Assembly (NCBI GenBank): GCA_015057825.1
Contig: SVDN01000002.1
Location: 16,044 to 80,043, forward strand
Length of the DNA: 64,000 nt
Source: Lachnospiraceae bacterium
GTDB lineage: Bacteria; Bacillota; Clostridia; Lachnospirales; Lachnospiraceae
Reading direction: 5' to 3'
The position numbers were made by a program, and so were the translations under genes. Shown here one piece after another: positions 24,562 to 53,615 of the stretch (the first letter of the stretch is position 1; every line of letters begins with the position of its first letter). Below the pieces are notes generated by a model, which saw only the letters and a list, made by a program, of their open reading frames with translations, was not told the origin of the DNA and searched no databases.

Positions 24562-25698
24562 ATGAGCAGTATATATTTATTGATGAATAAAGACAATCCG
24601 ATAATTGAGTTTTCGCTGGAAAGCGGAATGTTGGATTATGTTTGCAAAGAAACAAACCGTTATAAAGATAATCTTCCGTGCTGGTTAAATGATATTGATG
24701 CATGGGTAGAATCAAGAAATTATGCAAAGCACAAAGAGCATTTCAAAAAATGGCTTAAAGAGTGGGGAATAGATAATAAGAAGGGCTTTATTGAAATAAC
24801 ACATGCATTGGGCTTAAATGATACATTATGGATAAAAGGAAAATCATCAAAGCTTACATGGGAAGAAGTAAATTTATATAATAATGAGTTTACTGACGTA
24901 GCTGAAAAAACGGCTTTTGAAACAGGACTTGCAGGCCTTAAACTTTCTTCATCTTCTCCGGAGATAACAGCGGAAGGAAGCTTTGAGAAGTGTTGGAAAA
25001 AACAACAAGATAACATTTATATATACAAAAAAGGATCTAGCGGATTTGCCAACGCCGGCTTAGAACCTTATTCTGAATTTTATGCATCTCAAATTGCAAA
25101 GACTTTTGATAAGAAAGCAGTTCAATATGATTTAGAAATGTATAAGGGCAGCCTGTGTACAAGGTGTGGAATGTTCACGTCTGAAGATGTAGGGTTTGTT
25201 CCTTTTTATAAGTATCATATTGGTGAAAATACTACAATGCAAAAAGTGTTTGAAGCATGTAAAGAGTTAGGATATGAAGCAGAATTTAGAAAAATGATAG
25301 TATTTGATTCTATTATTTTTAATCCGGATCGCCACACCGGAAACTTCGGATATCTAATTGATAATGAGACGTTCGAAATAAAAGCGTTCTCGCCACTATT
25401 TGATTATAACTACAGCCTTTTATGCAGAGCTATGTCAGATGATTTTGAAAATATCGAAGCTTATTTAGACACACAGGGGCATAAACTTGGCGGTTCTTAT
25501 GAATATGTGGCAAAAGCCTTTATGAGTGCTGAGTGTGAAGATATAATTGAAAGCCTGGGAACAATAAGATTTCAAAGACACAATAAATACAATCTTGAGG
25601 AAAAAAGGTTGGAGACGCTTGAAAGAATTTTAAACAAGCAAGCCAAAAGCCTTATAAAAAGAAATAATTATAGTAATAAAAAAGGAAAAAGATTATAA
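24562..25698 (+). CDS. HipA-like Ser/Thr kinase family protein
   Basis: Catalytic-loop-like IIFNPDRHTGNFGYL and downstream PLFDYNYSL (HipA_C pattern). Confidence 0.7.
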   Translation: MSSIYLLMNKDNPIIEFSLESGMLDYVCKETNRYKDNLPCWLNDIDAWVESRNYAKHKEHFKKWLKEWGIDNKKGFIEITHALGLNDTLWIKGKSSKLTWEEVNLYNNEFTDVAEKTAFETGLAGLKLSSSSPEITAEGSFEKCWKKQQDNIYIYKKGSSGFANAGLEPYSEFYASQIAKTFDKKAVQYDLEMYKGSLCTRCGMFTSEDVGFVPFYKYHIGENTTMQKVFEACKELGYEAEFRKMIVFDSIIFNPDRHTGNFGYLIDNETFEIKAFSPLFDYNYSLLCRAMSDDFENIEAYLDTQGHKLGGSYEYVAKAFMSAECEDIIESLGTIRFQRHNKYNLEEKRLETLERILNKQAKSLIKRNNYSNKKGKRL

Positions 25699-25747
25699 AA
25701 ATATTGTCGCGCGCGCAATTTACCTTTATGTTGTAATACTTTAAAAT
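25697..25747 (+). promoter_or_regulatory. Conserved ICE promoter module copy 1
   Basis: aaaaatATTGTCGCGCGCGCAATTTACC. TTGTCG at 25704. -35-like TTTACC. -10 TAAAAT at 25742, 32 bp after TTGTCG. Confidence 0.55.
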
Positions 25748-25752
25748 ATTAT

Positions 25753-25882
25753 TATCAATATAAACAGCACGAAAACAAAACTCACAATTTTAGTTGCTTA
25801 AACAATATGTAACTTGTAGGAGTTTATATTGATACTTTTTTCTCTAAGAGGAAGGCGGGTTTTTCCACCGCCTTCTTTTTTT
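25753..25882 (+). ncRNA. ORF-less transcription unit: long hairpin + intrinsic terminator (candidate sRNA or oriT)
   Basis: 13-bp inverted repeat TATCAATATAAAC (25753-65) / GTTTATATTGATA (25822-34) then T6. Second hairpin GAAGGCGG...CCGCCTTC + T7 (25851-25882). No RBS-preceded ORF. Confidence 0.4.
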
Positions 25883-25890
25883 GATTGCAG

Positions 25891-25945
25891 AAATAAAAAT
25901 ACTGTCGCGCACGCAATCCTTAAGAATGCTGATAATTGGTATAAT
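25891..25945 (+). promoter_or_regulatory. Conserved ICE promoter module copy 2 (relaxase promoter)
   Basis: aaataaaaataCTGTCGCGCACGCAATCC. Extended -10 TGgTATAAT (25937-25945), hexamer 32 bp after CTGTCG. Confidence 0.6.
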
Positions 25946-25971
25946 TATAGTTGGGAAAGGCTGGTGTTTAT

Positions 25972-27342: not shown

Positions 27343-27345
27343 ATT

Positions 27346-28089
27346 TGTATATACAAAGCAAAAAAGACTTGTATATACAGAAAAATGCAGTAATAGTGCG
27401 TCGTTCAAGAGTTGTATATACGAAAGTGTATATACAAATGCGCCGGAAACAGGCTTTGTATATACAAAAACGTATATACAAAAATCGGGATTAAGCTTTG
27501 TATATACAAAAATGTATATACAAACTATAAAGCAAAAATTTGTATATACAAATGTGTATATACAAGAAAAGGCAGTGAAATTGCGCCTTGTAGCGGTCTG
27601 TATATACAGTTGGAAAATAATGGTGTATATACAAATTGAATTTGTATATACATAGGTTTAACAAAGTGTATATACAAAAAAACGCAGTAAAAATGCAAAG
27701 TACAGCAGTTTGTATATACAAAACCAGCTGAAATGTATATACGTTTTAGCGAAACAGGGGTCTTAGGGGAATTTTCCCCTAACAAGATGTATCTGTGGGT
27801 ACAGATGCGTATCTTGCAATACGAATAAAAAAGAAAAAAGCTGACAGCTATGGGAAAAAATAATTTGTATATACAAATATGTATATACAAAAGTGTATAT
27901 ACAAGCGAAAAACGTATATACAAATGTGCATATACGAACACTTGTTGTATATACAAAATGCATTTGTTAAAAATGTATATACAGGCTCAAAGCCTGTTAT
28001 TTCAAGGAATAGGGCACTTGTATATACAAATCTAAAAACAAAAAAATGTATATACAAAAACGTATATACAACATATGTTTGTATATACA
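27346..28089. repeat. Array of 27 TGTATATACA palindromes in two blocks (16 + 11) flanking a 120-bp core
   Basis: Counted by eye: 21 exact, 6 near copies. Eight pairs have exact 14-bp start-to-start spacing. No credible ORF. Confidence 0.9.
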
Positions 28090-28244
28090 ATAAAAATAAT
28101 CCAGGCTGTTTAAGCCCGGAGAAACCCCAGTCCGTAGACACAATCAATATCGAACGAGATTTATAGAAAACCGAACGATATATTGACAAAACCATACGAT
28201 TATAATATTATGAAATTAGAAGAATACAGAAAGGAGAAATGAGT

Positions 28245-28460
28245 ATGTCTATTACGGCCACAGAATTAAAGAGTAATTTAGGTAAGTATTTGCTGCTTGC
28301 AGAAACAGAAGATATTTATATCACAAAAAATGGAAAAGTCGTCGCAAAATTATCAAATCCTCACCAGGATCGTGTCGATATTGCAAAATCTCTTTTCGGG
28401 GTAATACCAAATGATATAACGCTGGATGAGGCGCGGGAAGAGAGGTTGAATAAAATTTGA
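28245..28460 (+). CDS. Phd/YefM-family antitoxin
   Basis: SITATELKSNLGKYLLLAETEDIYITKNGKVVAKL. Overlaps the PIN gene start. Confidence 0.8.
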   Translation: MSITATELKSNLGKYLLLAETEDIYITKNGKVVAKLSNPHQDRVDIAKSLFGVIPNDITLDEAREERLNKI

Positions 28461-28867
28461 GAGCTTTGCTTGATACTTGTATTATAATTGATGCTTTGCA
28501 ATCACGCGATCCGTTTTCAAATGATGCACAGGCGATATTTATGAGCGCTGCGAACAAGCAATTTGAAGGATATATAGCAGCAAAGTCAGTGGCAGACATT
28601 TATTATATTACGCATCGGAACACACACAACGATGAGGAAACCAGGAAGATATTAAATAAAATTTTCGCACTGTTTGGCATATTAGATACAACATCGCTTG
28701 ATTGTCGAAAAGCAGTTTCTTCGGAAATGAAAGATTATGAAGATGCAATCATGGCAGAAACCGCAATGCGCACTGAAATGGATTGTATTGTTACAAGAAA
28801 TATAAAAGATTTTAAAAATGCATCAATAAAAATTTTAAGTCCTACAGAGTTTATAAAGATGATATAG
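28457..28867 (+). CDS. vapC: PIN-domain toxin (VapC-like)
   Basis: N-terminal LLDTCIIIDAL (PIN Asp) and later acidic residues (DYEDAIMAETA). TTG start overlapping the antitoxin stop. Confidence 0.8.
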   Translation: MRALLDTCIIIDALQSRDPFSNDAQAIFMSAANKQFEGYIAAKSVADIYYITHRNTHNDEETRKILNKIFALFGILDTTSLDCRKAVSSEMKDYEDAIMAETAMRTEMDCIVTRNIKDFKNASIKILSPTEFIKMI

Positions 28868-28876
28868 AACAAATTT

Positions 28877-28901
28877 AAGCAGCTGACAAGGCTGCTTTTT
28901 C
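28877..28901 (+). terminator. Intrinsic terminator after vapC
   Basis: AAGCAGC-tgacaag-GCTGCTT followed by TTT. Confidence 0.6.
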
Positions 28902-28907
28902 TATGCC

Positions 28908-28964
28908 AAAAATAAAAATATTGTCGCGCGCGCACACCTTAGAAAATACAGCCTGCTTTATAAT
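28908..28964 (+). promoter_or_regulatory. Conserved ICE promoter module copy 3
   Basis: aaaaataaaaataTTGTCGCGCGCGCACACCTTAG. TATAAT at 28959, 32 bp after TTGTCG (28921). Confidence 0.6.
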
Positions 28965-29025
28965 TAATATATCGAAGGTACCACGATATATATCACTCAA
29001 ATTTATAAAGAAAGAAGGATGATTA

Positions 29026-30006
29026 ATGACAGCAAAACAGTTGGCAGAAATGATAAAGGAAGAAATTGGAAATTATATTGATTTAGGAGCTTACGGAGTT
29101 GGAGAAGTAACAATCCATGAGGTGATGAAAAACAACGAAAAACTTACAGGAATAGCCTTCAAGCCGAAAACAAATGATATAGCGCCTTCTATTTACGCAG
29201 ATTATTTTGTTGATTCTTTTGAAAACAGTGAAAAAGGTAAGCAAGAATTATTTGAAAAAATTCAAAATATTCTTAAGGATAGTTTCAACATAAAAGAAAA
29301 TCAAGTTTTGTTCTCCGGTATTTCAAATGTAGCAGAAGAGTGTTTTACACAGGAATACTTTGAAAAAAATTTAAGATTATGTGTTATGAGCACTGAAACG
29401 AACAAAGAGTATCTTTCAGAAATTCCACATAAGAATTTTTCGGATATGAGCTTATATTACAAGATTATGGTTGGAAAAGAAGCATCTATCACGGTAAGAA
29501 ACGAGCACCTTAAATATGTGGGAATAGACGAAAGACAGCTTCATGCTCTTGCCGTAAAGTCACAAAAGGAAAATGTTTCATATGAAGTAAGAGATATGAA
29601 AGAGATAATTAAAGGAATTTTTGAGAAAAAGGGTTTTGAGGTTGATGAATACTTTATTGAAACAATACCTTCCAACCTTAAAGTTATATCAAACAAGGAA
29701 ATGCTCTTCGGCGCAGCTTGTATATATGATGATGATCTTATGTCAAAAGCAGTAAAAGACATGGGTGAAAACCAGGCATTTGTGCTTCCTTCAAGTGTTC
29801 ACGAGATTATTCTTGCTCCTTATAATGAAGCAGAAATTGAACGTTTTCATCAGATGGTTTGCGATGTCAATGCTACAGAAGTAGCTCCGATGGATAGGCT
29901 TACTGATAACGTTTATATGTATGATGCAAACAGAAAAGAACTTATTCAGTTAACAGGTCTTAATAACAGCAATACGCTTAAAAACAAAAATTCACATAGT
30001 ATGTAA
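29026..30006 (+). CDS. Conserved ICE protein, DUF5688-like (from memory)
   Basis: 326 aa. VLPSSVHEIILAP and DRLTDNVYMYD resemble a family common in Firmicute ICEs. Not verified. Confidence 0.45.
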   Translation: MTAKQLAEMIKEEIGNYIDLGAYGVGEVTIHEVMKNNEKLTGIAFKPKTNDIAPSIYADYFVDSFENSEKGKQELFEKIQNILKDSFNIKENQVLFSGISNVAEECFTQEYFEKNLRLCVMSTETNKEYLSEIPHKNFSDMSLYYKIMVGKEASITVRNEHLKYVGIDERQLHALAVKSQKENVSYEVRDMKEIIKGIFEKKGFEVDEYFIETIPSNLKVISNKEMLFGAACIYDDDLMSKAVKDMGENQAFVLPSSVHEIILAPYNEAEIERFHQMVCDVNATEVAPMDRLTDNVYMYDANRKELIQLTGLNNSNTLKNKNSHSM

Positions 30007-30021
30007 GAATTAACACAGGTT

Positions 30022-30046
30022 AAGGGCAGCCTTACAGGTTGCCCTT
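30022..30046 (+). terminator. Terminator-like hairpin
   Basis: AAGGGCA...TGCCCTT stem after the stop at 30006. Confidence 0.5.
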
Positions 30047-30058
30047 CTTGTATTTAGT

Positions 30059-30116
30059 AAAAAAATAAAATATTGTCGCGCGCGCAATTTACTTTTGCAA
30101 AATGCGCTAATACAAT
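30059..30116 (+). promoter_or_regulatory. Conserved ICE promoter module copy 4 (T4SS operon)
   Basis: aaaaaaataaaataTTGTCGCGCGCGCAATTTACT. TACAAT at 30111, 32 bp after TTGTCG (30073). Confidence 0.6.
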
Positions 30117-30147
30117 TTTATAAGAATAACAAAAGGAGAGTGATTTT

Positions 30148-31095
30148 TTGGGAAGTAGCAAGACAGAAGTAACACTGGAACAAGTAAAAAAATATATTGT
30201 TGCAAAAGAGTTTTCAGAAGAAGAAGCCAGGGCTGTAAATGACTTAGAAGCCGGCCCTGTACAAAAATATATATACGCAATAGCTATTCGACAATTTGGA
30301 TTAGAGTCTGAAAAGACATACTTAATAAAAAACAATCTTTATTTGGAAGACAAGGTTGTTAATGAAATTTTTTTAGCATTTCAAAAGAAAGTTGATGCAG
30401 AAGATGTTGAAAAAGTAATAAACGAATTTGGAGCAGATATTAAGCCGCATTATATTACTAAGCTTTATAATCCCAAAGTGAATGAAAAGCCGGAAGACAA
30501 ATTCTTTAATCAAGTTATGGATGAAGCTGAGAAACAAAATGAAACAGATACAGAAACTCAAAGCAATGATTTGTTAACCAAAGAAGATACTTTATATGAA
30601 GCAGAGACTAAACCGGATTTATCAGAAGAACAGGCGGAAAAAGGCAAAGAAACACAACCGGAAGATGTAAAAACAGAAGAATCTTCAATCAAGGAAGATG
30701 AGAAAGAGAAGACGAATCAGAATCTTTCTCTTTATGAAAAAGAAGAAATGAATCCGGTTGATCAAAAACTAAAGAGGCTGCTGGAATCAAACGAAGAAAT
30801 AAAAAAGAAAATAGATAGTATTAATCTTGAAATAAGGCAGCTTCAAACACAATTGTCTAATGTAGCTAATAATAAGAGAAGAAAGATATCGGTATTTACA
30901 AAAGAAGAGTCGATTTCTAAAGAATCTCTTTTATCTTATGTAATTAGAAGGCATTACAACCCAAAAGTCTTAGATCTTCTAAATAAGCAGTTTAATTCCG
31001 GAGCGAAACCGGAGCAATTAAAAGAAATACTTGATAATGAAGAAGATGAAGAAAAGTTGTTAGCTCTATTAAAAATGACATTATCCCAAAAATAA
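30148..31095 (+). CDS. Acidic coiled-coil hypothetical protein
   Basis: TTG start 8 nt after AGGAGAG. Glu/Lys-rich low-complexity centre. Confidence 0.4.
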   Translation: MGSSKTEVTLEQVKKYIVAKEFSEEEARAVNDLEAGPVQKYIYAIAIRQFGLESEKTYLIKNNLYLEDKVVNEIFLAFQKKVDAEDVEKVINEFGADIKPHYITKLYNPKVNEKPEDKFFNQVMDEAEKQNETDTETQSNDLLTKEDTLYEAETKPDLSEEQAEKGKETQPEDVKTEESSIKEDEKEKTNQNLSLYEKEEMNPVDQKLKRLLESNEEIKKKIDSINLEIRQLQTQLSNVANNKRRKISVFTKEESISKESLLSYVIRRHYNPKVLDLLNKQFNSGAKPEQLKEILDNEEDEEKLLALLKMTLSQK

Positions 31096-31110
31096 AAGGA
31101 GAGTGAAAAC

Positions 31111-32655
31111 ATGCAGGAAGTAGTGGAAATAGTGAGAGTAATGATGGATGGAATTGCGATGCCATTTAAACTTGTAGGTGGAATAACAACTCATTCTATA
31201 GAGATTATCCAGGCTTTTATGAAACAGTTAAAATTCATGGACGAAAGAAGAGAAGCAAACCTTACAAATCAGACAAAAGGAATAACTTCTTTTTATAACC
31301 TAAAAACAAGAAGTAATGGGCAAATTACAATACTAAATATTCCAAAGGAAATGGTAGAAGATGGCAAGCCGGATTTAACAGGAAGCACGCTTGATAGATA
31401 TGCTAAAAATAATGGTGTGCTTTGTTCGGTGTTATATGATTTTAATACAGACGATGATTTTAAACAGATTGCCATAGATTCAAACGATGCAGGAATGTGG
31501 AGACCTTTTATTGCAGAATGTACAAATAGGTTTCATGAAAAAAACCGTGCCGTATCTGAACAAACAAAAATAAAAGCAGATCAATTATATAAAAAGGCTG
31601 CGGAAAGTAAGGAGCGCGCAGCGTTTTATTATGAAAGAGGTGATAAAGAAAAAGCTGTAGCATTTGATAAAGAAGCAAGTGAATACACAGCTGCAGCCGA
31701 TGAATTAAATGCTTTAAGCAAAGCCCAAGCTGATCAGGAGACAAAAGTTGAAATAGATATTGAAGACTATTATAAAAACTCTGAAGGCGGAGCTGTAAAT
31801 ATAGATAATAACTTGAAAGAAGTAGAAGCCGGATTACCGCAACATGGGGAAATATCCATAGAAGAGGCAATGAAACTTGACACAGTTGAAAGTAATAATC
31901 CGGGAGATGTTGTTTATATTTATGATCCATTAAATCCAAATAACTATATCAAGGGTACATGTTCCGAAGCTAAAAATCCGATAACGGATAGAACATATAA
32001 CAAAATGGATTATGAGTCGGTTGAAAAATCTTTTTCACCGGATGGATCCGTAAACGTAAAATCAAAAGGATTTGTATCTGATGAAAGAGATTCCTTTGAT
32101 TGGGAAGCAAAAAGAGAAGCTTTTTTACATACAGCAGGATTTAAGCCGGAAGAAAAAGTGGTAGTTGAAAAATCCGAAGATGTTTTATCAAAGAAGCAGG
32201 AAATCTTTGAAGAAACAAAAAAAAACAAAATGAATGAATCATTAAGAGATATTATGCCGAAGGATAATGTTATTGACTTTGCAAAAGCAGCCCATAAAAA
32301 CGACATGGACAACATAACAACTAAAATAGAGTTCGATAATGCGTGTGTCGTAGGACAAGATGCTTTGAGCATTGAGGTAGTTACAGATATAAATAAAGAT
32401 TCATACGAAACAATGAAGTTGCCACGCAGTTCGATTAATGAGCCGGGTGTCTATAGAATGTTTGGAAATGAGTTTTTGGAAAAAACAAAATATGATGCAG
32501 AAGGTAAAGTGATGCAAGTTGAACAAAAGAATTTTTCAATCGAAGAATCTAAACAGCAACTTGAAAGAACACGTAGCCTATTAAAAGAACAAATAGAACG
32601 AGTTGCAGCAAAGATGAAGGAGAAAAATAATATTGGAAAAACAAAGAAATTATAA
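31111..32655 (+). CDS. PcfB/DUF3801-like protein preceding the coupling protein
   Basis: N-terminal region and position immediately upstream of VirD4, as for pCF10 PcfB (from memory). Long extra C-terminal region. Confidence 0.4.
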   Translation: MQEVVEIVRVMMDGIAMPFKLVGGITTHSIEIIQAFMKQLKFMDERREANLTNQTKGITSFYNLKTRSNGQITILNIPKEMVEDGKPDLTGSTLDRYAKNNGVLCSVLYDFNTDDDFKQIAIDSNDAGMWRPFIAECTNRFHEKNRAVSEQTKIKADQLYKKAAESKERAAFYYERGDKEKAVAFDKEASEYTAAADELNALSKAQADQETKVEIDIEDYYKNSEGGAVNIDNNLKEVEAGLPQHGEISIEEAMKLDTVESNNPGDVVYIYDPLNPNNYIKGTCSEAKNPITDRTYNKMDYESVEKSFSPDGSVNVKSKGFVSDERDSFDWEAKREAFLHTAGFKPEEKVVVEKSEDVLSKKQEIFEETKKNKMNESLRDIMPKDNVIDFAKAAHKNDMDNITTKIEFDNACVVGQDALSIEVVTDINKDSYETMKLPRSSINEPGVYRMFGNEFLEKTKYDAEGKVMQVEQKNFSIEESKQQLERTRSLLKEQIERVAAKMKEKNNIGKTKKL

Positions 32656-34837
32656 AAGGTATTTAATTATATGGCTTGTTTTCTTAGGCTTTTTTCTTTT
32701 AATCGGATGGAAATTGGGAGCTTCAATGCACGAGGGATTAGGTTTAAGGAGTTGGGGTGACTCGGTGACAGCCTGGGCAAAGACATTACCGGCAGGGTTG
32801 ATACCTCATGCCGATGAGTTTAATGGAAGGTACACTGCTCTTGGATTAATACTTATGTTTATGGTCTGGGCATTTATGGTTGCTGTTGGAATGTGGAATT
32901 GGGGAAACTATATGCCCGGTAAGGAGTATGGTTCGGCAAAATGGGAAGATCCTAAGAATTTAACAAAAAAATATGCAGATAAAAAGGCAGAAAATATATT
33001 AAAAGGGATTAAACATCCTTTTAATACGCATAATAGGATAGTATCTCAAAACTTAAGAGTTTCATTGGAATCGGCGTTATCAAACAATCATACACTAGTT
33101 ATTGGTGGATCCGGAAGAAGAAAATCAACCGGATATGTTCTTGCAAATCTTTTGTCGCTATTGGATTGTTCATCAATTACTACGGATCCAAAAGGTGAAT
33201 GTTTAAGAATGGCCGGACCTGTACAAAGAGCATTTGGTCATACTGTTAAAGCTTTAATGCTAAGAAATGCAAAAGACCTTAAAAAAAGTGCTCATTATAA
33301 TCCTTTTATTTACATAGAATCTGAAGAAGATTGCGTTGAGCTTGCAGAGATTTTTATGAAATCAACAGAATCACAAAAACAGTCATCTGCAGACCCTTAT
33401 TGGGTAGAAGCCGCCGGCTATTTACTTCAGTCCTTCTTTTTATATGTATGGAAGTATTCGGAAAAGAAGACAATGCGTTCGGTTTGCGATCTATTAAACG
33501 ATTTAAAGATTGAGGATGATCCAAACACCGGTGGCAGAAAAATAAGTCCAACAGAGAAGAAGTTTCATGAGCTGCCGGATCAAAAAGATAGTTGCGTGAC
33601 TGCATTTGACAAGGCGGTGCAAGGTCCGACGGATACTATTAACTCTGTTGTGGCGGTACTTAATTCTCGAATGAAGTATTTAAATATGGATTCAACATTA
33701 GAGATATTTGACGATGATGATATTGCTATTCATGAGTTGGGTTGCGGCGTTGACTTTGATGGTAAAACAATAACGGACTTGTATCTTGTTATTAACGATC
33801 AAATCACTGTTAATCCATACAAATTTATTGTAAGTATGCTATATATGCAGCTGACAAAAGTTTTATATCGATATGCGGATACCTATTATGGCGGTAAATT
33901 ACCGATATCGGTTCAATATATGATGGACGAATGGGCAAACGTTGAGACAGGTGCAGGTTTTGTAAACGACCTTACAACAATGCGCTCAAGAGGAATGTTT
34001 GTATCGGTTATTTTGCAGTCTTTAACTCAGGCAAAGACAAAGCTTAAAGATGAATGGGAAACGCTTATGGGTAACTGTGCAACAATAATTTATTTGGGCG
34101 GAAATGAACCGACAACCAACAAATATTTTTCAGAGGATATCTTGGGTGAACAAACAATAGACAAAAAATCAAGCGGTGAAAGTCTAGGGTCTCATGGCTC
34201 TACATCTCACAATTATGACAGGCTTGGCAGGAAACTCAGAACTCCGGCTGAAGTACGAAAACTTTCAAAAAAGAAATGTCTGGTAATCCTTGAAGGCGAA
34301 GATCCGGTTATTGATTATAAGTACAATTTATTTTCTCATCCTTTAATTGGATATTCCGGATATAAACAAAAACCTTATGATTATGATGCCTCCAAGGAAA
34401 GGAATTTGGAAATGTCAAATTTTAAACTTCTAAATGACGCCTCTTTGAAGGCATATAGTGGTATAGCTACAGAGCAGGGAAAAGATATCGTCTATACAAT
34501 TGATGTTAATGATCTTTTGGCATTAACGCCGGAACAGGTAAGTAAATTTAATAAAGAATTACCAAATCTATATGATGATGAGATACTCCAGGAAAACAGG
34601 GAAAGAATTCAGACCCTTATAAAAAAGAAAAAGGAAACAACGGTTGATATTTCATCGTTAACCAAAGAACAAACCATTACAATTATTAAGCTCAAACACG
34701 ATGATTATTCGCCAAAACTGATTAATGCACTCTTCCCGCTTGTTGAAAACAATTGGTCTTTTGAAAAGATTTCGGAATTATTTAATTCATCATTTGATGC
34801 GGATGAGGCTACAGAATATGTAGCAAATTTAGTTTAA
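32633..34837 (+). CDS. virD4: Type IV coupling protein (VirD4/TraG/PcfC family)
   Basis: Two N-terminal TM helices. Walker A-like VIGGSGRRKSTG. Walker B-like YMMDEWANV. 734 aa. Confidence 0.85.
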   Translation: MEKQRNYKRYLIIWLVFLGFFLLIGWKLGASMHEGLGLRSWGDSVTAWAKTLPAGLIPHADEFNGRYTALGLILMFMVWAFMVAVGMWNWGNYMPGKEYGSAKWEDPKNLTKKYADKKAENILKGIKHPFNTHNRIVSQNLRVSLESALSNNHTLVIGGSGRRKSTGYVLANLLSLLDCSSITTDPKGECLRMAGPVQRAFGHTVKALMLRNAKDLKKSAHYNPFIYIESEEDCVELAEIFMKSTESQKQSSADPYWVEAAGYLLQSFFLYVWKYSEKKTMRSVCDLLNDLKIEDDPNTGGRKISPTEKKFHELPDQKDSCVTAFDKAVQGPTDTINSVVAVLNSRMKYLNMDSTLEIFDDDDIAIHELGCGVDFDGKTITDLYLVINDQITVNPYKFIVSMLYMQLTKVLYRYADTYYGGKLPISVQYMMDEWANVETGAGFVNDLTTMRSRGMFVSVILQSLTQAKTKLKDEWETLMGNCATIIYLGGNEPTTNKYFSEDILGEQTIDKKSSGESLGSHGSTSHNYDRLGRKLRTPAEVRKLSKKKCLVILEGEDPVIDYKYNLFSHPLIGYSGYKQKPYDYDASKERNLEMSNFKLLNDASLKAYSGIATEQGKDIVYTIDVNDLLALTPEQVSKFNKELPNLYDDEILQENRERIQTLIKKKKETTVDISSLTKEQTITIIKLKHDDYSPKLINALFPLVENNWSFEKISELFNSSFDADEATEYVANLV

Positions 34838-34857
34838 CAAAAAGGAGATATAACAAA

Positions 34858-35175
34858 ATGAAAAATGAAAAGAAGAAACTAATGATAACAACAGCTGTAA
34901 CGGCAATGACAGCGCTGGCAAATACTTCTCAGGTTTTTGCAGCAGATAACGGGTTAATTAATCAAGTATTAGAACCTCTTGTTTTATTAAAAACGTTAAT
35001 CTTTGCGGGGTTAGCTGTAGTTGGCGGTATTATTTTTGCGTGGAATGCTTTCCATTTCGCCGGAGCGCTAAAAGAGAAGGATCAAATAGGTATTTCATCT
35101 AATCTTTTAGGCATGCTTGGAGGCGGAATAATGGCCGGCATTGGAGCGGTCGTATCGTTTTTAGGCATTGGTTAA
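34858..35175 (+). CDS. Small membrane protein, VirB2/TrbC-like or Maff2-family
   Basis: Signal peptide ...TSQVFA/AD and two hydrophobic helices. Position between VirD4 and a VirB6-like gene. Confidence 0.5.
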   Translation: MKNEKKKLMITTAVTAMTALANTSQVFAADNGLINQVLEPLVLLKTLIFAGLAVVGGIIFAWNAFHFAGALKEKDQIGISSNLLGMLGGGIMAGIGAVVSFLGIG

Positions 35176-35189
35176 AGAGGTGAAGATTT

Positions 35190-36134
35190 ATGTTGTTAGG
35201 TGGATTAGGAAATATGGGACAGTCGATAATGGAAGCATTTGGCTTTTCTGGAGATTGGCAAAGAGTTACGTGGATATCTAATGTTATAAACGGAAATAAT
35301 ATTTTTAATCAGCTGGTTAAATATGCTAAAGATCTTTTAACTACAAATCCTGCAAACTGGAAGACGGATGCATGGAACTTTGTCAGTGGTCTAAATGCTG
35401 CGATGGTAGCGGTTGGGTCCGGGTTAGTTGTTTTTTTCTTTTTATATGGCTTTTTTACCTCTAGTATTGATGCAAAGAATGAGCTAAAGATTCAAAATAT
35501 GATAAAAATGCTTATTAAGCTTGTATTAGTTAATGGAGTTGTCGTTTTTAATATGTACATAATAACGGCAATAATGAAGTCAATAATGGCTATTATTGAG
35601 TTTATACCAACGCAGTTGACCGGGACTACAAGTGATGCTCTAATATCAAATTCTACAGTAATATATGACGACTTGTTTGTCCGAGCAATTGAATCAGACA
35701 GTAATTTTTTTGACACAATACTGGGTAGCATAATTACTTTTCTATATCTAATTGTTATGGCGGCAGCCGGGGTTATTATATTGTATTACGCTTTCACAAG
35801 GTTTCTAAAACTTTATAGCATAATTCCTTTTGGAGCAATTGCGCTTGCTACGTTAGCAAGTGATAACAAGGATATATCAATAACCGGAGTCTCATATTTC
35901 AAATATGTTATAGCAACGTGCTTAGAGGGTGGCGTGATGTTAATAGCCATATGCTTGTTTCCTTATATCATGGCGGCAGGGGATTCAGATCCATTCCTTT
36001 CCGTTGTTGAAGGAACAACAGCAACGACACCTCTTATTTTAGTATTTACGTTAAAATATATCATTTTAGCTGTTTTATGTATTGGAGCTGTTAAAGGAGC
36101 TATGACATTGATTAACAAGGCTTTTGGAATCTAG
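35190..36134 (+). CDS. Polytopic membrane protein, VirB6-like (CD1112-type)
   Basis: At least 6 hydrophobic helices. Position in the T4SS operon. Confidence 0.55.
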   Translation: MLLGGLGNMGQSIMEAFGFSGDWQRVTWISNVINGNNIFNQLVKYAKDLLTTNPANWKTDAWNFVSGLNAAMVAVGSGLVVFFFLYGFFTSSIDAKNELKIQNMIKMLIKLVLVNGVVVFNMYIITAIMKSIMAIIEFIPTQLTGTTSDALISNSTVIYDDLFVRAIESDSNFFDTILGSIITFLYLIVMAAAGVIILYYAFTRFLKLYSIIPFGAIALATLASDNKDISITGVSYFKYVIATCLEGGVMLIAICLFPYIMAAGDSDPFLSVVEGTTATTPLILVFTLKYIILAVLCIGAVKGAMTLINKAFGI

Positions 36135-36147
36135 GGGGGGTGATTAT

Positions 36148-36597: not shown

Positions 36598-36603
36598 AAT
36601 AAA

Positions 36604-41810: not shown

Positions 41811-41841
41811 AGTCACACTCTTTTTTGGGTGTGACTTTTTG
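41811..41841 (+). terminator. Intrinsic terminator
   Basis: AGTCACAC...GTGTGACT + TTTT. Confidence 0.65.
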
Positions 41842-41850: not shown

Positions 41851-41908
41851 AAAAAATAAAAATATTGTCGCGCGCGCAATTTACTTTTGTATATTGTGCA
41901 AATAAAAT
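41851..41908 (+). promoter_or_regulatory. Conserved ICE promoter module copy 5
   Basis: aaaaaataaaaataTTGTCGCGCGCGCAATTTACT. TAAAAT at 41903, 32 bp after TTGTCG (41865). Confidence 0.6.
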
Positions 41909-41936
41909 GATAACAGATGCAAAGGAGAAAAAAGTT

Positions 41937-42170
41937 ATGATAATCAATTATAAAGGAAGGCAATTAGACTTTGATGAAGAGTTTTTAAAGATTTATAAAG
42001 AATTTACATTTAAAAACTTGGAAGAAGATATCAATTATGCGTTAAAGAATATGGAAATTGATAATCTTTCAGAAAAAGAAATAGTAAACGCATTGAAAAA
42101 AGAAGTTATCGGACAGATTGAACTACTAGATTGTCCGATACAGGAGTTTATTAAAAAGAGAGAAATATAA
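41937..42170 (+). CDS. Hypothetical protein (77 aa)
   Basis: ATG 7 nt after AAAGGAGA. The tracked longer ORF start lies inside the promoter module. Confidence 0.4.
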   Translation: MIINYKGRQLDFDEEFLKIYKEFTFKNLEEDINYALKNMEIDNLSEKEIVNALKKEVIGQIELLDCPIQEFIKKREI

Positions 42171-42171
42171 A

Positions 42172-42606
42172 GTGGAAAAATTTCAACAATATGGAATTAC
42201 AGTAAGCTTTGATATTCCGAACAAAGATATTTACAAAGATATAGAAGCAGGCTTAAAACTTATAAACGATAGTATAAAAGGGAAAATACCCGACGGTGAG
42301 ATTTTTGTTTATGCGGTGTCATGTAAAGAAAATATATTAGCTTGTTATGCAACATCCAGCGAAGTAGAATTTGCGATTATTGAAAAAGGGGTTGTAACAC
42401 AGAACTGTTCAATGTTACAGTTTGAAAACATAACACTGGAAGATTACGAAACACTAGCATATAGGTTTGAAAATATAATAAATCGCTTTAATAAAACCGG
42501 AAAAAATGAGTCTTTGCAAAACCTAAAAAAGGCGTTTATAGAATACAAAGGGATAAAAGCACAAAAAATATCACAACCGGTAAAAAAGAGGCCCAAAAGA
42601 TTATAA
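42172..42606 (+). CDS. Hypothetical protein (144 aa)
   Basis: GTG start adjacent to the preceding stop. No motif recognised. Confidence 0.35.
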   Translation: MEKFQQYGITVSFDIPNKDIYKDIEAGLKLINDSIKGKIPDGEIFVYAVSCKENILACYATSSEVEFAIIEKGVVTQNCSMLQFENITLEDYETLAYRFENIINRFNKTGKNESLQNLKKAFIEYKGIKAQKISQPVKKRPKRL

Positions 42607-42619
42607 GGAGAAAAAAGTT

Positions 42620-46651: not shown

Positions 46652-46654
46652 GAA

Positions 46655-49756: not shown

Positions 49757-49759
49757 AAT

Positions 49760-50551
49760 ATGGGCAAGTTTATAAAAGAGTATAGTGCCGTTGCAGTCGC
49801 AGTTATTGTTTCAATATTTATATTGATAGCGGCAACCAACGCATCAAAGTCTGTTAGCAACGTATCTGAAAAACAGACGGCTGCGCTTGAAAACAATGCT
49901 GCGGCTTGGCAGGTTGGTGATTCTGCAGATTTTGAAACTGTAGGAGAACTTACAGACGTAGAACAAACACAGTTAGATGCAATGCAAGCCAAGTTGGATG
50001 CAATGCAAGAGCAAATAGATAACTTTGAAGGATTTGACTTGGATAAAGCTTATCCTATTGGTTCAATTTACATTACTATGTCTTCAGCAGATCCCGCAGA
50101 TCTTATGGGTGGAACCTGGGAAAGAATGGAAGACAGAGAGTTAATTGGAGCCGGTAATCTATATACTGTTGGAAGCGAGCAAGGTAGCAGCTCCGTTAAG
50201 TTGGCAGCTACGCAGATTCCTTCTTTATCGGTAAGTGGCAGTACCAATAGTGCCGGAGCACATACTCATGTTATTGGTATGGGACCTGCCAAATGGAATT
50301 ATGGCAGTCAAGCCTGGTATTCTGATACTGTAGGGCCACCAAACCAACTTTTTGCGCCATATGGATATGGTATGGGAAGTGGTGGTCCAACAACACACGC
50401 AGGTTATTATAACCAATCAAATGGTACAAGTACATATTCTTCCGGGACTCATACACACACAGTAACAGCAAAATATACAAACAACAATCAAACATCGGTC
50501 AGTGTAATGGATCCAACCATAGCAGTTTACATGTGGAAGCGTGTTGCCTAG
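49760..50551 (+). CDS. Membrane/pilin-anchored protein with phage tail-collar-like receptor-binding domain, copy 1
   Basis: N-terminus MGKFIKEYSAVAVAVIV (G-x4-EY + hydrophobic helix). C-terminal YPIGSIYITMSSADPADLMGGTWERMEDRELIG and HxH motifs (AHTHV, THTHT), as in Gram-positive phage tail fibre/collar proteins. Confidence 0.6.
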   Translation: MGKFIKEYSAVAVAVIVSIFILIAATNASKSVSNVSEKQTAALENNAAAWQVGDSADFETVGELTDVEQTQLDAMQAKLDAMQEQIDNFEGFDLDKAYPIGSIYITMSSADPADLMGGTWERMEDRELIGAGNLYTVGSEQGSSSVKLAATQIPSLSVSGSTNSAGAHTHVIGMGPAKWNYGSQAWYSDTVGPPNQLFAPYGYGMGSGGPTTHAGYYNQSNGTSTYSSGTHTHTVTAKYTNNNQTSVSVMDPTIAVYMWKRVA

Positions 50552-50635
50552 ATTATATAGTCGCTAGTTAAAAAAGAATGTAGTATTCTTGTTGATTCTT
50601 TAATATAATAAAAGAAAAAATATATTTTCGAAAGG
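49760..50635. repeat. Duplicated segment, copy 1 (gene + downstream 65 bp)
   Basis: Near-identical to 51098..51975. The first ~130 bp are more diverged, then only a few substitutions. The ~20 bp after each stop codon differ. Confidence 0.85.
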
Positions 50636-50649
50636 AACAAGATACAAAT

Positions 50650-50826
50650 ATGCTCGTAGAAAATACAAAAGAAAATAGGGAATTACAGGAAGCGGTAGCA
50701 ACGCTAGCAATTGAAGATATGTTTGTAGAGGAAGCATTTTTGAATGAATTAATGCAAGTTTCAGAAGGAAAAAAAACGACGGAAGAGCTTAGGAGAGAGG
50801 TTATTAAAAAGTATGCAAGACGTTAA
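50650..50826 (+). CDS. VbhA-like antitoxin of a class I Fic module (58 aa)
   Basis: MLVENTKENRELQEAVATLAIEDMF... has TLAIED, resembling the (S/T)xxxE(G/N) inhibitory motif. Overlaps the fic start by 14 nt. Confidence 0.5.
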   Translation: MLVENTKENRELQEAVATLAIEDMFVEEAFLNELMQVSEGKKTTEELRREVIKKYARR

Positions 50827-51097
50827 ATACTGTTATCCTAACTCAGATGTTTTAAAAAACAAGTTAAACATTAGAAACTCAGAAGATTTATATGAGGCAG
50901 AAAAAGAACTGACATTAATTCGAATAAAGGAGCTTCAAGCGCGTCCGCTGATGGGAAAATTTGACTTTCAGCATTTAAAAAATATCCATAAATATATATT
51001 TCAAGATTTATATGAATGGGCTGGTGAGGTCAGAACTGTTGAAATTGGAAAAGGCAATCTTTTTTGTACAACAGCATGTATAAACGAATACGCTAAA
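50813..51097 (+). pseudogene. 5' fragment of a class I fic (FicT/VbhT-like) gene, fused in frame to tail-collar copy 2
   Basis: YCYPNSDVLKNKLNIRN...IHKYIFQDLYEWAGEVRTVEIGKG is the Fic N-terminal region. The ORF never reaches an HPFxxGNGR motif. Confidence 0.6.
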
Positions 51098-51889
51098 ATG
51101 GGCAAGTTTATTAAAGAGTACAGTGCTGTTGCAGTCGCAGTTATTGTGGCAATAATAATATTGATAGCGGCAGGTAACGCATCAAACTCTGTTCGTAACT
51201 TATCTGAGAAGCAGACAGCAGCACTTGAAAAAAATGCTGCGGCTTGGCAGGTTGGGGATTCTGCAGATTTTGAAACTGTAGGAGAACTTACAGACGTAGA
51301 ACAAACACAGTTAGATGCAATGCAAGCCAAGTTGGATGCAATGCAAGAGCAAATAGATAACTTTGAAGGATTTGACTTGGATAAAGCTTATCCTATTGGT
51401 TCAATTTACATTACTATGTCTTCAGCAGATCCCGCAGATCTTATGGGTGGAACCTGGGAAAGAATGGAAGACAGAGAGTTAATTGGAGCCGGTAATCTAT
51501 ATACTGTTGGAAGCGAGCAAGGTAGCAGCTCCGTTAAGTTGGCAGCTACGCAGATTCCTTCTTTATCGGTAAGTGGCAGTACCAATAGTGCCGGAGCACA
51601 TACTCATGTTATTGGTATGGGACCTGCCAAATGGAATTATGGCAGTCAAGCCTGGTATTCTGATACTGTAGGGCCACCAAACCAACTTTTTGCGCCATAT
51701 GGATATGGTATGGGAAGTGGTGGTCCAACAACACACGCAGGTTATTATAACCAATCAAATGGTACAAGTACATATTCTTCCGGGACTCATACACATACAG
51801 TAACAGCAAAATATACAAACAACAATCAAACATCGGTCAGTGTTATGGATCCAACCATAGCAGTTTATATGTGGCAGCGTGTTGCCTAG
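51098..51889 (+). CDS. Tail-collar-like protein, copy 2 (may be translated alone or as a Fic-N fusion)
   Basis: Same 263-aa architecture as 49760..50551. The internal ATG 51098 aligns with the copy 1 start. Confidence 0.55.
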   Translation: MGKFIKEYSAVAVAVIVAIIILIAAGNASNSVRNLSEKQTAALEKNAAAWQVGDSADFETVGELTDVEQTQLDAMQAKLDAMQEQIDNFEGFDLDKAYPIGSIYITMSSADPADLMGGTWERMEDRELIGAGNLYTVGSEQGSSSVKLAATQIPSLSVSGSTNSAGAHTHVIGMGPAKWNYGSQAWYSDTVGPPNQLFAPYGYGMGSGGPTTHAGYYNQSNGTSTYSSGTHTHTVTAKYTNNNQTSVSVMDPTIAVYMWQRVA

Positions 51890-51975
51890 AAGTAGTTCAA
51901 CCGACATCTTAAAAAAGAATATAGTATTCTTGTTGATTCTTTAATATAATAAAAGATAAGATATATTTTCGAAAG
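51098..51975. repeat. Duplicated segment, copy 2
   Basis: See copy 1. Confidence 0.85.
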
Positions 51976-52056
51976 AAAGCGTGTCGATGTAATTACGAAA
52001 GAAGAAGCTTTGCGCATAATGCCAAAAACTATAGAAAGGGAAAAAGGTTCTTATAT

Positions 52057-52305
52057 ATGAACGAAAACACTAGAACAAGCAATGTCGAAGAAATGTTGCC
52101 TTCTTTTTTAAAAGAATCTATTGATAAGTTTGTAGAAGGAAAAATGAAAAGCGAAGCCGACAAAAGCTATATGCAGTTTGACTGTGATTATTGCGAGCTG
52201 CAAAGTGATATAAATGTTGCGGAAGTGGAAGGAATTATTTCATCGGAAGAAGCTTGGAATTTGAGAAAAAAATATTTAGGAATTAATAAGGGAACAATAG
52301 ATTGA
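52057..52305 (+). CDS. Hypothetical 82-aa protein coupled to a HipA-like gene
   Basis: Stop overlaps the next start (ATGA). Acidic. Confidence 0.45.
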   Translation: MNENTRTSNVEEMLPSFLKESIDKFVEGKMKSEADKSYMQFDCDYCELQSDINVAEVEGIISSEEAWNLRKKYLGINKGTID

Positions 52306-53216
52306 TGATTGATTTTTCAAAATGTGAACATAAAAATAAAACATATTCGGGTGCAAATGGTAGTAAGATTTCGGTTGTTTATGATAATGGGTTGTATATG
52401 CTTAAGTTTCCGTCAAGGGCACCAAGAAATGATGATATAAGCTATAGTAACAGCTGCTTCTCTGAATATCTAGGTTGCAAGATATTTAAGGAAATTGGTA
52501 TTCCTGTTCAAGACGTAGTTTTGGGAACATATACAACAAATAAAGGTAACGAGAAAATAGTTGTAGCTTGTAAGGATTTTGCCGTAAATGGCAAAGTATT
52601 ACAGGATTTCGGATCTTTAAAAAATCAAATTGTCGATTCTGAAAACAATGGATATGGAACGGAGCTAGAAGATATTAAGGAAACATTTGAGTTACAAACC
52701 ATTGTAGATCCTATAGAATTATCAAAAAGATTTTGGGATATGTTTATTGTTGATGCTTTAATTGGAAATTGGGATAGACATAACGGAAATTGGGGATTTC
52801 TTTACGACTCTATGGCTGACAAAAACGAGTTAGCACCTGTCTTTGATTGCGGAAGTAGTTTATATCCACAGTTGGATGAAGAAAAAATGAAGCATATCCT
52901 TGTGGATGGTAAGGAAATAAAAGCAAGAGTATATAATATCCCTACATCTGCAATAAGAATAAATAGCAAAAGAATTAACTATTATAATTTCATTCTTTCC
53001 GGAGAGGAAATGGGTTGTAATGATGCATTAAAACGTATTGTTCCTAATATTGATACAGACAAGATTTTTGATATTATTGACAATATGCCAATTATAGGTG
53101 ATGTACATAAAGATTTTTATAAGCAGATGTTAATACAAAGATATAATTTGATATTGGTAAAGTCGTATAAGAACTTAAACAAACTTTACAATATTAAGAA
53201 ACCAAAAAGATTATAG
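52302..53216 (+). CDS. HipA-like kinase family protein (short form)
   Basis: IGNWDRHNGNWGFLYD and LAPVFDCGSSL correspond to the HipA_C catalytic and Mg loops. Confidence 0.65.
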   Translation: MMIDFSKCEHKNKTYSGANGSKISVVYDNGLYMLKFPSRAPRNDDISYSNSCFSEYLGCKIFKEIGIPVQDVVLGTYTTNKGNEKIVVACKDFAVNGKVLQDFGSLKNQIVDSENNGYGTELEDIKETFELQTIVDPIELSKRFWDMFIVDALIGNWDRHNGNWGFLYDSMADKNELAPVFDCGSSLYPQLDEEKMKHILVDGKEIKARVYNIPTSAIRINSKRINYYNFILSGEEMGCNDALKRIVPNIDTDKIFDIIDNMPIIGDVHKDFYKQMLIQRYNLILVKSYKNLNKLYNIKKPKRL

Positions 53217-53220
53217 GTAT

Positions 53221-53565
53221 ATGGAAGAAAAGAAATTAAGTAAGAGACAAGAAAAAGTAAACGTTTTACAGCCTATATTATGTCCGTTTTGCGGCGGTTT
53301 GATTAGCATTACAGAATTATCATTTGGTTGTCAAAATTGCAATAGTTTTTTTGACAGATCCAAAAACGATGTTAGCCAGGTTTTAAACCGGGCCTTAACA
53401 GAAGAAGAAATTTCGGATCTATTCAGCATCAGGGGATTAAAGGTTGTAGTTGATAATTCACTTAAATATGAAGCATATAATTTTAAGGCAAATACACGTT
53501 TTGAGAATCCTGAGATAGAAACCATACCGCTAAAAAAACAAAAGCGAAGACACTTTAGATTTTAA
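53221..53565 (+). CDS. Zinc-ribbon protein
   Basis: CPFCGG...CQNC four-Cys ribbon. 114 aa. Confidence 0.45.
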   Translation: MEEKKLSKRQEKVNVLQPILCPFCGGLISITELSFGCQNCNSFFDRSKNDVSQVLNRALTEEEISDLFSIRGLKVVVDNSLKYEAYNFKANTRFENPEIETIPLKKQKRRHFRF

Positions 53566-53615
53566 AAAATATTGTCGCGCGCGCACACCTTAGTGCGTGC
53601 GTTTTTTTGTACAAT
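53564..53615 (+). promoter_or_regulatory. Conserved ICE promoter module copy 6
   Basis: aaaaaatATTGTCGCGCGCGCACACCTTAG. TACAAT at 53610, 32 bp after TTGTCG (53572). Confidence 0.6.

Follow-up and report, generated by a model that had tools for sequence, protein, structure and literature searches.

The window analysed here is a stretch of 64,000 nucleotides from a Lachnospiraceae bacterium (assembly GCA_015057825.1, contig SVDN01000002.1, positions 16,044 to 80,043 of the forward strand; all coordinates below are those of the window), which carries a 44.4-kb integrative and conjugative element (ICE) at 13002-57463, inserted in tRNA-Lys(CTT). In a related Parasporobacterium metagenome-assembled genome the accessions of the flanking DUF3881 and D-Ala-D-Ala carboxypeptidase proteins differ by 3 (MCR5083460, MCR5083463), as opposed to 55 here, which suggests an empty insertion site. 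Six copies of one promoter module, consisting of an A-rich run, a GC-cored box and a -10 hexamer, were found in the window, and all six lie within the ICE at the heads of transcription units. On balance, we favour the reading that these are sigma-A promoters of late units under the control of a single ICE-encoded, trans-acting factor, which would act on them as an activator.

An earlier note on this DNA had described a six-copy module, and every copy was recovered: the pattern YTGTCGCGCRCGCA matched the window exactly six times, at 25704, 25902, 28921, 30073, 41865 and 53572, always on the plus strand and in the same orientation as the genes concerned. The expected number of matches in dinucleotide-preserving shuffles was 0.01, and none of the shuffles reached six. 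A search of the window with TGTCGCGCGCGCA, two mismatches being allowed, added no further site. A 28-nt position weight matrix (PWM) built from the six copies scored its own sites at 38-45 bits and the best unrelated position in the window at 9 bits, i.e. the six sites stand without a surrounding degenerate family. No copy was detected with the PWM in the 19.5 kb of host flank within the window, and PWM and motif scans found none in the toxin-antitoxin units, cargo units and other intergenic gaps of the ICE. The G+C content of the window is 35% and its CpG ratio is unremarkable. Runs of (CG)3 were seen at 10 places: the six modules, a hairpin at 17940-17955 and single hexamers at 4 other positions. 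The hairpin, a perfect GCGCGC-TAC-GCGCGC on the plus strand, contains the seventh (CG)4 of the window and has no T-run; it lies after the first gene of the early operon and before the Xis-like genes, and its flanks are unlike the box (PWM score of 4 bits).

Five of the six boxes are identical over 20 nt. The unit common to the modules, AAATA(T/C)TGTCGCGC(G/A)CGCA, is asymmetric and 19-20 nt long; self-complementarity is confined to the GCGCGCGC core, and the conserved flanks AAATA(T/C)TGT and CA are asymmetric. Mean pairwise identity between copies was 84% in the box (-14 to +13 relative to its first T) and 87% in the -10 hexamer, compared with 27% in the 46 nt upstream, 29% in the 24-nt spacer and 31% in the 40 nt downstream (random expectation 28%). 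Box and -10 are two conserved islands at an invariant distance, with surroundings at random level. Modules 4 and 5 have 79% of their spacer in common, which points to one recent duplication, and no other pair shares a spacer. The continuations of the box that had been reported earlier were also borne out (AATTTAC(C/T)TTT in three copies, CACCTTAG in two and AATCCTTAAG in one).

In all six copies a TAnAAT hexamer begins 38 nt past the first T of (T/C)TGTCG. The fixed 32-bp spacing claimed in the earlier note holds when counted from the end of (T/C)TGTCG to the start of the -10 (exactly 32 nt in 6/6) and not from start to start, where it is 38. With a TAnAAT frequency of 0.0028 per ICE position, six occurrences at one offset would be expected by chance with a probability of ~5e-16. 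All six hexamers are close to TATAAT, as expected of sigma-A promoters (Table 1), and the five coding units have a Shine-Dalgarno sequence and a start codon 19-55 nt past the predicted start site. Numbering relative to the start site assumes that transcription begins 7 nt past the -10, with predicted starts at about 25754, 25952, 28971, 30123, 41915 and 53622. On that assumption, the TGTCGCGCGCGCA block occupies -49 to -37 (slightly off the earlier placement at about -45 to -35), the A-rich run occupies -63 to -51, and the site AAATA(T/C)TGTCGCGC(G/A)CGCA extends from about -55 to -37, with the GCGCGCGC centre at -41.5. The site abuts the -35 with identical spacing in all six copies and in a variant copy described below, which is a class II-type activator position. 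An UP element spans about -59 to -38 and adjoins the -35; the location of the A-rich run does not correspond to this, since it covers -63 to -51 and -49 to -37 is GC-rich. The run could serve as a site for the C-terminal domain of the RNA polymerase alpha subunit (alpha-CTD) upstream of a bound activator.

At a 17-nt spacer, the -35 slot matches the consensus TTGACA at 4/6 positions in modules 1, 4 and 5 (TTTACC or TTTACT); in modules 3 and 6 (ACCTTA) and in module 2 (TCCTTA) the match falls to 1-2/6. Judged by these matches, the -35 is usable in three copies and not recognisable in the other three, among which only module 2 has a TGn-extended -10.

A long, asymmetric and near-invariant motif that sits in one orientation at operon heads behind terminators resembles promoters of the T7 type, and the box might be the recognition element of an alternative sigma factor (with the GC block as its -35) or of a phage-type single-subunit RNA polymerase. 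We regard this as the least plausible of the explanations weighed here. The end of the block lies 24 nt from the -10, outside the 16-19 nt range of the sigma-70 family, the other conserved island is a -10 of the canonical sigma-A type, and no sigma-70 region 2/4 domain and no RNA polymerase gene were found in the ICE.

Coordinates of the modules, of the units they head and of other features of the ICE are collected in Table 1. The terminators that the earlier note had placed before four of the copies were found as terminator-like hairpins directly upstream of 25902, 28921, 30073 and 41865. The downstream units are likewise as described there, save that the labels 'adhesin' and 'Tad' find no confirmation beyond a weak match to Listeria-Bacteroides repeats and a T2SSE-type ATPase.

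Table 1. Positions of the six promoter modules, associated transcription units and other features of the ICE (aa, amino acids; HTH, helix-turn-helix; ORF, open reading frame; SSB, single-stranded DNA-binding protein; T4SS, type IV secretion system)
Feature	Position	Strand	Description
Module 1	25690..25747	+	A-rich run; TGTCGCGCGCGCA at 25705-25717; -35 slot TTTACC at 25719-25724; -10 TAAAAT at 25742-25747; heads the ORF-less unit; overlaps the 3' end of a HipA-like gene (stop 25698); no upstream terminator
ORF-less unit	25754..25886	+	Predicted non-coding transcript of ~130 nt from module 1; ends predicted
Module 2	25888..25945	+	Variant box CTGTCGCGCACGCA; -35 slot TCCTTA (2/6); TGn-extended -10 TGGTATAAT (hexamer TATAAT); heads the relaxase gene (ATG 25972)
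Terminator upstream of module 3	28877-28897		
Module 3	28907..28964	+	Box followed by CACCTTAG; -35 slot ACCTTA (1/6); -10 TATAAT; heads a monocistronic DUF5688 gene (ATG 29026)
Terminator upstream of module 4	30022-30046		
Module 4	30059..30116	+	Box; -35 slot TTTACT; -10 TACAAT
T4SS operon of module 4	30148-40835		VirD4, PrgI-like, VirB4, M23/NlpC hydrolase
Terminator upstream of module 5	41811-41836		
Module 5	41851..41908	+	Box; -35 slot TTTACT; -10 TAAAAT
Operon of module 5	starts 41937		Genes of 77, 144, 342 and 657 aa, SSB, T2SSE-type ATPase, more
Module 6	53558..53615	+	Box followed by CACCTTAG; -10 TACAAT; heads the ArdC operon (ATG 53641)
ICE ends	13002-13053 and 57412-57463		52-bp exact direct repeat, the 3' end of tRNA-Lys(CTT)
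Tyrosine integrase gene	13145-14254	-	
cI-like HTH gene	16652-17080	-	
Divergent consensus sigma-A promoters	17634..17719		TTGACA-18-TATAAT (+, 17690) and TTGACA-17-TAAAAT (-, 17662)
Early operon	17749-25698	+	orf63, two Xis-like paralogues, ParM-like actin, Toprim/DUF3991 primase, 87-aa Xre HTH, RepA_N, NikA/MobC, methyltransferase-like 188-aa protein, Fic, HipA-like protein
Candidate regulators, tandem 62- and 64-aa paralogues (39% identical)	18042..18447	+	Putative link to the box
Candidate regulator, 87-aa Xre-type HTH	20871..21134	+	In the early operon; putative link to the box
Toxin-type genes	15726-16421 (-), 23745-24524, 24562-25698, 28239-28867, 41563-41802, 50813-51889, 52302-53216		

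The ORF-less unit headed by module 1 contains a 12-bp stem (AUCAAUAUAAAC/GUUUAUAUUGAU) and an intrinsic terminator at about 25846-25886, and its predicted folding energy is -35.1 kcal/mol (z = -5.1). No Rfam family matched it at the gathering score, and a relaxed E-value threshold returned only hits with E of ~1 or more, well below gathering. The unit could function as a small RNA, or it could belong to an oriT-like (origin of transfer) region. Its single-stranded linker ACUUUUUUCUCU would form 11 Watson-Crick pairs and one G-U pair with the Shine-Dalgarno regions GGAGAAAAAAGU at 41924-41935 and 42607-42618, both within the module-5 operon; this 11-12-nt anti-Shine-Dalgarno match was all that the search for small-RNA targets gave, and in A-rich sequence it is not significant. 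The inverted repeat directly upstream of the relaxase gene could belong to oriT instead.

In module 6 only, the GC block doubles as the 5' arm of a terminator-like hairpin (GCGCGCGCAC/GTGCGTGCGT followed by T7, 53577-53609, -18.5 kcal/mol), which closes the upstream 114-aa gene and directly precedes the -10, so that the terminator of that gene and the promoter of the ArdC operon interlock. A common RNA structure, or a bidirectional or minus-strand terminator, was rejected as a function of the box, as the other modules fold poorly (-1.6 to -11.4 kcal/mol) and share no structure. A separate observation concerns modules 5 and 6. A 1.1-kb contig (L044; ENA ERZ27247007 k141_31060) corresponds to 53018-53585 of the window joined to 41858-42411, the junction between the left flank of module 6 and the right flank of module 5 being exactly the 21-nt core that the two modules share. 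Either the modules recombined, giving a circle or tandemly duplicating the 11.7-kb segment, or the contig is a MEGAHIT chimera; at 21 nt, the overlap has the length of the assembler's smallest k.

A further reading is that the GC block works without a dedicated protein. The block could act through a supercoiling-sensitive B-Z transition of CGCGCGCGCA between A-rich flanks, or as a methylation-sensitive switch, and in either case it would alter the geometry of the promoter. CGCGCGCGCA is indeed a 10-bp tract of alternating pyrimidines and purines, and the single substitution in the core keeps the alternation; GCGC, CGCG and GCGCGC are common targets of restriction-modification (R-M) systems as well as methyltransferases, and the ICE has a gene for a 188-aa methyltransferase-like protein. 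A tract of 10 bp is nevertheless short. Textbook values are ~5 kcal/mol per B-Z junction and ~0.33 kcal/mol per bp, with an unconstrained superhelical density of ~-0.03 in vivo, and on these values the transition would cost an estimated ~13 kcal/mol against ~6-7 kcal/mol relieved. The G-to-A change in the core is a transition, which always preserves alternation and is uninformative; alternation would likewise be preserved by changing CGCGCGCG to CACACACA or TGTGTGTG. The conserved unit includes the non-alternating AAATA(T/C)TGT, which is as conserved as the CG core and which a purely structural element would not need, and neither family nor PDB searches gave the methyltransferase-like protein a significant match. 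A structural or methylation-based function in its own right seems quite improbable to us, and the emphasis of the earlier note on Z-DNA is not supported, given the short tract, the uninformative transition and the asymmetric extension of the conserved sequence.

A related possibility combines structure with a protein: the (CG)4 core might be read in a shape-dependent manner, as left-handed or distorted DNA, by a winged-helix Xis/Cox-like protein of the ICE, in the way that Zalpha reads (CG)n. A Zalpha-(CG)6 complex did appear among the weak fold matches of the Xis-like protein (E = 0.17, template modelling (TM) score 0.46), but the match is non-significant, its topology differs from the model, and excisionase and Cox structures reach higher TM scores (0.58-0.60). 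We consider such a readout very unlikely. If true, regulator concentration would not be the only input to the six promoters, which would also follow the superhelical or replication state of the element once excised or newly transferred; this would be a regulon of a bacterial mobile element with a non-B DNA switch as its gate.

Searches of 5.8 billion protein clusters with DUF5688, relaxase and VirD4 returned copies that were 99-100% identical, followed by best matches at 32-39% identity; the best plasmid relative of VirD4 was 34% identical. By these comparisons, and copies of at least 98% identity aside, the ICE forms an orphan lineage. In contigs from several ENA, JGI and Logan samples (L029-L031 and L036-L043; 99.88-100% identical to the window) the modules are unchanged. 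Samples containing the element are those of the ENA ERZ27247004-045 series, SRR7110574/6 and JGI 3300019371/4. Four distant relatives (L026, L028, L032, L033) encode a relaxase or VirD4 35-39% identical to that of the ICE and have in common a backbone of ParM-like actin, DUF5688, primase, NikA, relaxase, VirD4 and VirB4; they have no dispersed promoter box and no PWM match, and their genes are packed into long operons. The 18-mer box was found in no Firmicutes genome among 185,579 GTDB species-representative genomes, with chance matches in GC-rich DNA only, and the same kind of chance match was all that was seen in JGI metagenomes, IMG/VR, PLSDB plasmids and INPHARED phages. A 16-kb segment of the ICE had no BLAST match to plasmids, and a literature search for the box sequence itself retrieved nothing relevant. 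A 68-nt module aligned to plasmids and phages gave a single 43-nt match, to Cellulophaga phage phi19:1, which was rejected as an AT-rich chance similarity without the GC core. The absence of the box from genome collections and from the distant relatives argues for an element-specific factor.

This distribution also bears on the proposal that a host factor, either Spo0A or another Lachnospiraceae regulator, reads the box and ties transfer of the ICE to host physiology. The consensus of the 0A box is TGTCGAA, and 0A boxes lie upstream of the -35 at Spo0A-activated sigma-A promoters; TGTCGCG in the modules resembles it, with TGTCG at -49 to -45 and 5/7 consensus positions, and the ICE contains no obvious activator gene. 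Against this, the conserved unit runs through CGCGCGCA and AAATA, which a 0A box leaves unexplained, neither the 19.5 kb of host flank nor any Firmicutes genome among the 185,579 representatives has a copy, and sites of host regulons are normally degenerate, not identical over 20 nt. The Spo0A box as such was rejected: TGTCGCG is present in all copies and matches the consensus at 5/7 positions, with conservation extending past the heptamer. Control by a host factor is in our view improbable. The earlier note had allowed for an ICE-encoded or a host factor, and of the two the host factor is the less likely, because the exact box is absent from the representative genomes.

The only truly diverged copy, L035 (ENA ERZ1667847), is 98.0% identical to the window over 28476-30162, a region that includes module 3. 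Eight substitutions fall between the terminator and the -10 of this module, split evenly between the distal A-run and the spacer (four each); the 27-nt AAATATTGTCGCGCGCGCACACCTTAG and TTTATAAT are free of them, and there is no indel between box and -10. The sole indel around this module lies in the 5' untranslated region, and the adjoining DUF5688 gene differs at 4/981 positions. Such a pattern is as expected if box, -35-slot sequence and -10 are constrained.

The box is most likely the docking site of one regulator that turns the six units on or off together. In this proposal, the modules would be sigma-A (sigma-70-type) promoters of late, conjugation-related units of the ICE, and one sequence-specific DNA-binding protein on the box would set all six together. 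The factor would be ICE-encoded, produced from the early operon (17749-25698) under the consensus promoter of a cI-like switch. Bound at a class II-type activator position, with GCGCGCGC centred at -41.5, it would make up for the -35 contact that the relaxase, DUF5688 and ArdC promoters lack and strengthen the three TTTACY promoters, and the upstream terminators of four modules would stop read-through and make expression dependent on the box. The regulon interpretation of the earlier note fits the two islands at an invariant distance, the gene orientation, the Shine-Dalgarno placement, the insulating terminators, the confinement to conjugation units of one ICE and the pattern of substitutions in L035.

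As to the sign of regulation, activation is more likely than repression because half of the promoters are without a -35, because distance and orientation to the -10 are invariant, because the site lies at a class II-type activator position and because the upstream terminators tie each unit to its own promoter. The most credible alternative, if still an unlikely one, is that an ICE-encoded global repressor uses the box as its operator. The promoters would then be intrinsically active (good -10, A-rich UP-like run, TTTACY where present), and a protein at -49 to -37 would block the contacts of alpha-CTD and sigma region 4 until transfer is induced, in the manner of the KorB class I operators of IncP-1 plasmids and the ArtA operators of pSK41. 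Near-identical operators in several copies resemble plasmid global-repressor systems (PMC2777438, PMC11790492, PMC2665229), the same operator recurs at several promoters of one element (six copies), and ICEs normally keep their transfer genes off. In three modules a 4/6 -35 stands at the ideal 17-bp spacing, the -10 is strong in all, and an A-rich run lies upstream. On the other hand, the three promoters without a recognisable -35, only one of which has a TGn extension, should be weak unaided, and occlusion needs no invariant distance or orientation to the -10. The box is not palindromic, unlike the operators of KorA/KorB, and family searches found no small DNA-binding gene as an autoregulated first gene behind any module (small uncharacterised proteins remain). 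The four substitutions that the distal A-tract takes in L035 weaken a strict UP-element role.

Several observations weigh against activation of all six units by one ICE-encoded factor. Modules 1, 4 and 5 have a workable -35 at 17-bp spacing, so their promoters could be active unaided, with which repression fits as well, and the start sites are predictions from the consensus -10. The near identity of the boxes could partly come from recent duplication. Comparative support is provided by a single variant contig, L035, for which the P value depends on the region considered (~0.08 over the 158-nt intergenic region, ~0.005 over the 72-nt promoter region). Searches with Pfam, NCBIfam and PHROGs found no sigma, AraC, FlhDC-like or other activator family in the ICE. 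Finally, the site is asymmetric, whereas HTH dimers of the Xre or controller type usually read dyads.

Candidate DNA-binding proteins are encoded in the early operon. Family searches identified no FlhDC, CRP/FNR, AraC or LuxR-type protein in the ICE, and family and PDB searches with the small ORFs revealed no DNA-binding family beyond the Xre-type HTH of the 87-aa protein. The best relative of this protein among solved structures is the controller protein C.AhdI (E = 1.3e-4), a weak match that is generic for the Xre superfamily. The 62- and 64-aa paralogues are predicted to form a beta-alpha-alpha-beta-beta-alpha winged helix (two-sequence AlphaFold model, pLDDT 84), and their best Foldseek matches, which are non-significant, include a putative excisionase and P2 Cox, with TM scores of 0.58-0.60. 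The product of the first early gene gave a two-helix model without a fold match. Further candidates would be orf63 (17749-17940) and the 114-aa zinc-ribbon gene (53221-53565). The cI-like repressor is unlikely to be the binder, as the palindrome of its own switch region differs (GTTTC-N3-GAAAC).

The minus-strand, lysogeny-type arm of the ICE encodes the cI-like HTH protein, Fic, an AAA ATPase and the integrase. The region 17634..17719 is likely a lysogeny-type switch between the cI-like HTH gene and the early operon, and it would stand upstream in the regulatory cascade. Between its divergent promoters lies the palindrome GTTTCTTTGAAAC (17669-17681), and the switch region has no GC box. A related half-palindrome, TGTTTCAAAGAA, is present at 17720; both are probably operators of the cI-like repressor. 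The 188-aa protein of the early operon (22895-23461) has the methyltransferase-like motifs ILDACCGS (DACCGS) and VVFDPPH (FDPPH) and no significant match in Pfam or PDB; its motifs suggest that it could be an orphan DNA or RNA methyltransferase.

The load of toxin-type genes is unusual, with two clear Fic matches and one weak one, two HipA-like kinases, a Phd/PIN pair and a RelB-type antitoxin. A 12-bp palindrome, TTGTATATACAA, occurs in ~20 copies (at most one mismatch; 0.5 expected) at 27345-28090, a gap with few ORFs that separates the relaxase gene from the Phd/PIN module, many of them in pairs 14 bp apart, and an extra copy at 41260-41271 is located just upstream of an 88-aa ORF adjoining RelB. 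Similar clustered arrays of other units are present in two of the distant relatives (TTCATATGAA, eight copies at 5231-5437 of L033; TGTAGGAATG, five copies at 8756-8895 of L026). The TTGTATATACAA array is a candidate centromere for the ParM-like system, set of replication iterons or part of oriT. A tandem duplication (49757-50637 and 51095-51978, spacing of 1338 nt), in which the detected segments of 300 nt and 70 nt are 93-94% identical, spans genes whose products have a phage baseplate Gp10 C-terminal domain, together with the intergenic regions downstream of them.

If co-regulation of the six units by one factor is true, a single 20-nt box would define the whole late (transfer) regulon of a rumen/gut Lachnospiraceae ICE lineage. 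A 45-bp probe should then recover the master regulator, and mutation of one site should silence the relaxase, T4SS, SSB/ATPase and ArdC units and the candidate small RNA at once. Units insulated by terminators and dependent on a box are well documented in Gram-negative elements (SetCD, AcaCD, KorA/B), and our literature search, which was aimed at named systems, yielded ArtA of pSK41 as a Gram-positive counterpart and no example from an ICE. Working out one such case would add to what is understood of the timing of conjugation in gut anaerobes; it would overturn no concept and would not surprise a specialist.

The closest parallels are found in the master activators of Gammaproteobacterial elements. 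The AcaCD boxes of IncA/C plasmids reportedly belong to a master-activator regulon like that of SetCD. In SXT/R391 ICEs, the 19-bp SetCD box lies immediately upstream of the -35 at many promoters without a recognisable -35 (PMC4344509). Both systems resemble the present one in that a regulator box of ~19 bp is repeated at promoters of transfer operons and abuts or overlaps the -35 in a class II-like geometry. Their activators, however, are FlhDC-like, and no FlhC or FlhD homologue is present in this ICE; their boxes are degenerate and their -10s poorly conserved, whereas here the box is near-invariant and GC-cored, the -10 is near-consensus, and activation is a reading of the promoter layout.

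KorA and KorB (and TrbA) operators of the IncP-1 plasmids RK2/RP4 are near-identical copies at promoters of transfer, replication and maintenance genes, some of them just upstream of the -35 (PMC11790492, PMC2665229, PMC4889941). The likeness consists in short, near-identical operators across the promoters of one mobile element and in global co-regulation. Unlike the box described here, which is asymmetric and fixed to the -10, those operators are palindromic, read by dimers and repressing. KorB is moreover a ParB-type CTPase, none of which is encoded in this ICE, where a ParM-like actin is found instead. ArtA of Staphylococcus aureus pSK41 is a small plasmid-encoded protein that acts on several transfer and segregation promoters through the repeated operator ACATGACATG (PMC2777438), and it shares with the present case a Gram-positive conjugative element and a short repeated operator. 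It differs in being a ribbon-helix-helix repressor, of which no homologue was recognised here, and in the sequence and placement of its operator.

With respect to the candidate regulators, controller (C) proteins of R-M systems belong to the small Xre-type HTH proteins; bound beside a weak -35 they activate, and at higher occupancy they repress (PMC2504287, PMC1885659). C.AhdI is the best solved relative of the 87-aa protein. C-boxes differ from the present box as dyad-symmetric double sites at a single autoregulated promoter, and no R-M system adjoins the 87-aa gene. Phage P2 Cox is a recombination directionality factor that also regulates promoters. In CTnDOT, the small winged-helix factors Xis2c, Xis2d and Exc double as activators of the transfer operon (PMC3809561). 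The two tandem paralogues at the head of the early operon, which are Xis/Cox-like according to their structural models, would be comparable to these proteins, although such proteins usually bind arrays of repeats and not one site of 13-20 nt. Repeated regulator boxes at the promoters of conjugative elements are already known, i.e. the design is known and the sequence is new. New are the box sequence, the isolated Lachnospiraceae ICE lineage in which it occurs and the unusually sharp architecture of its promoters.

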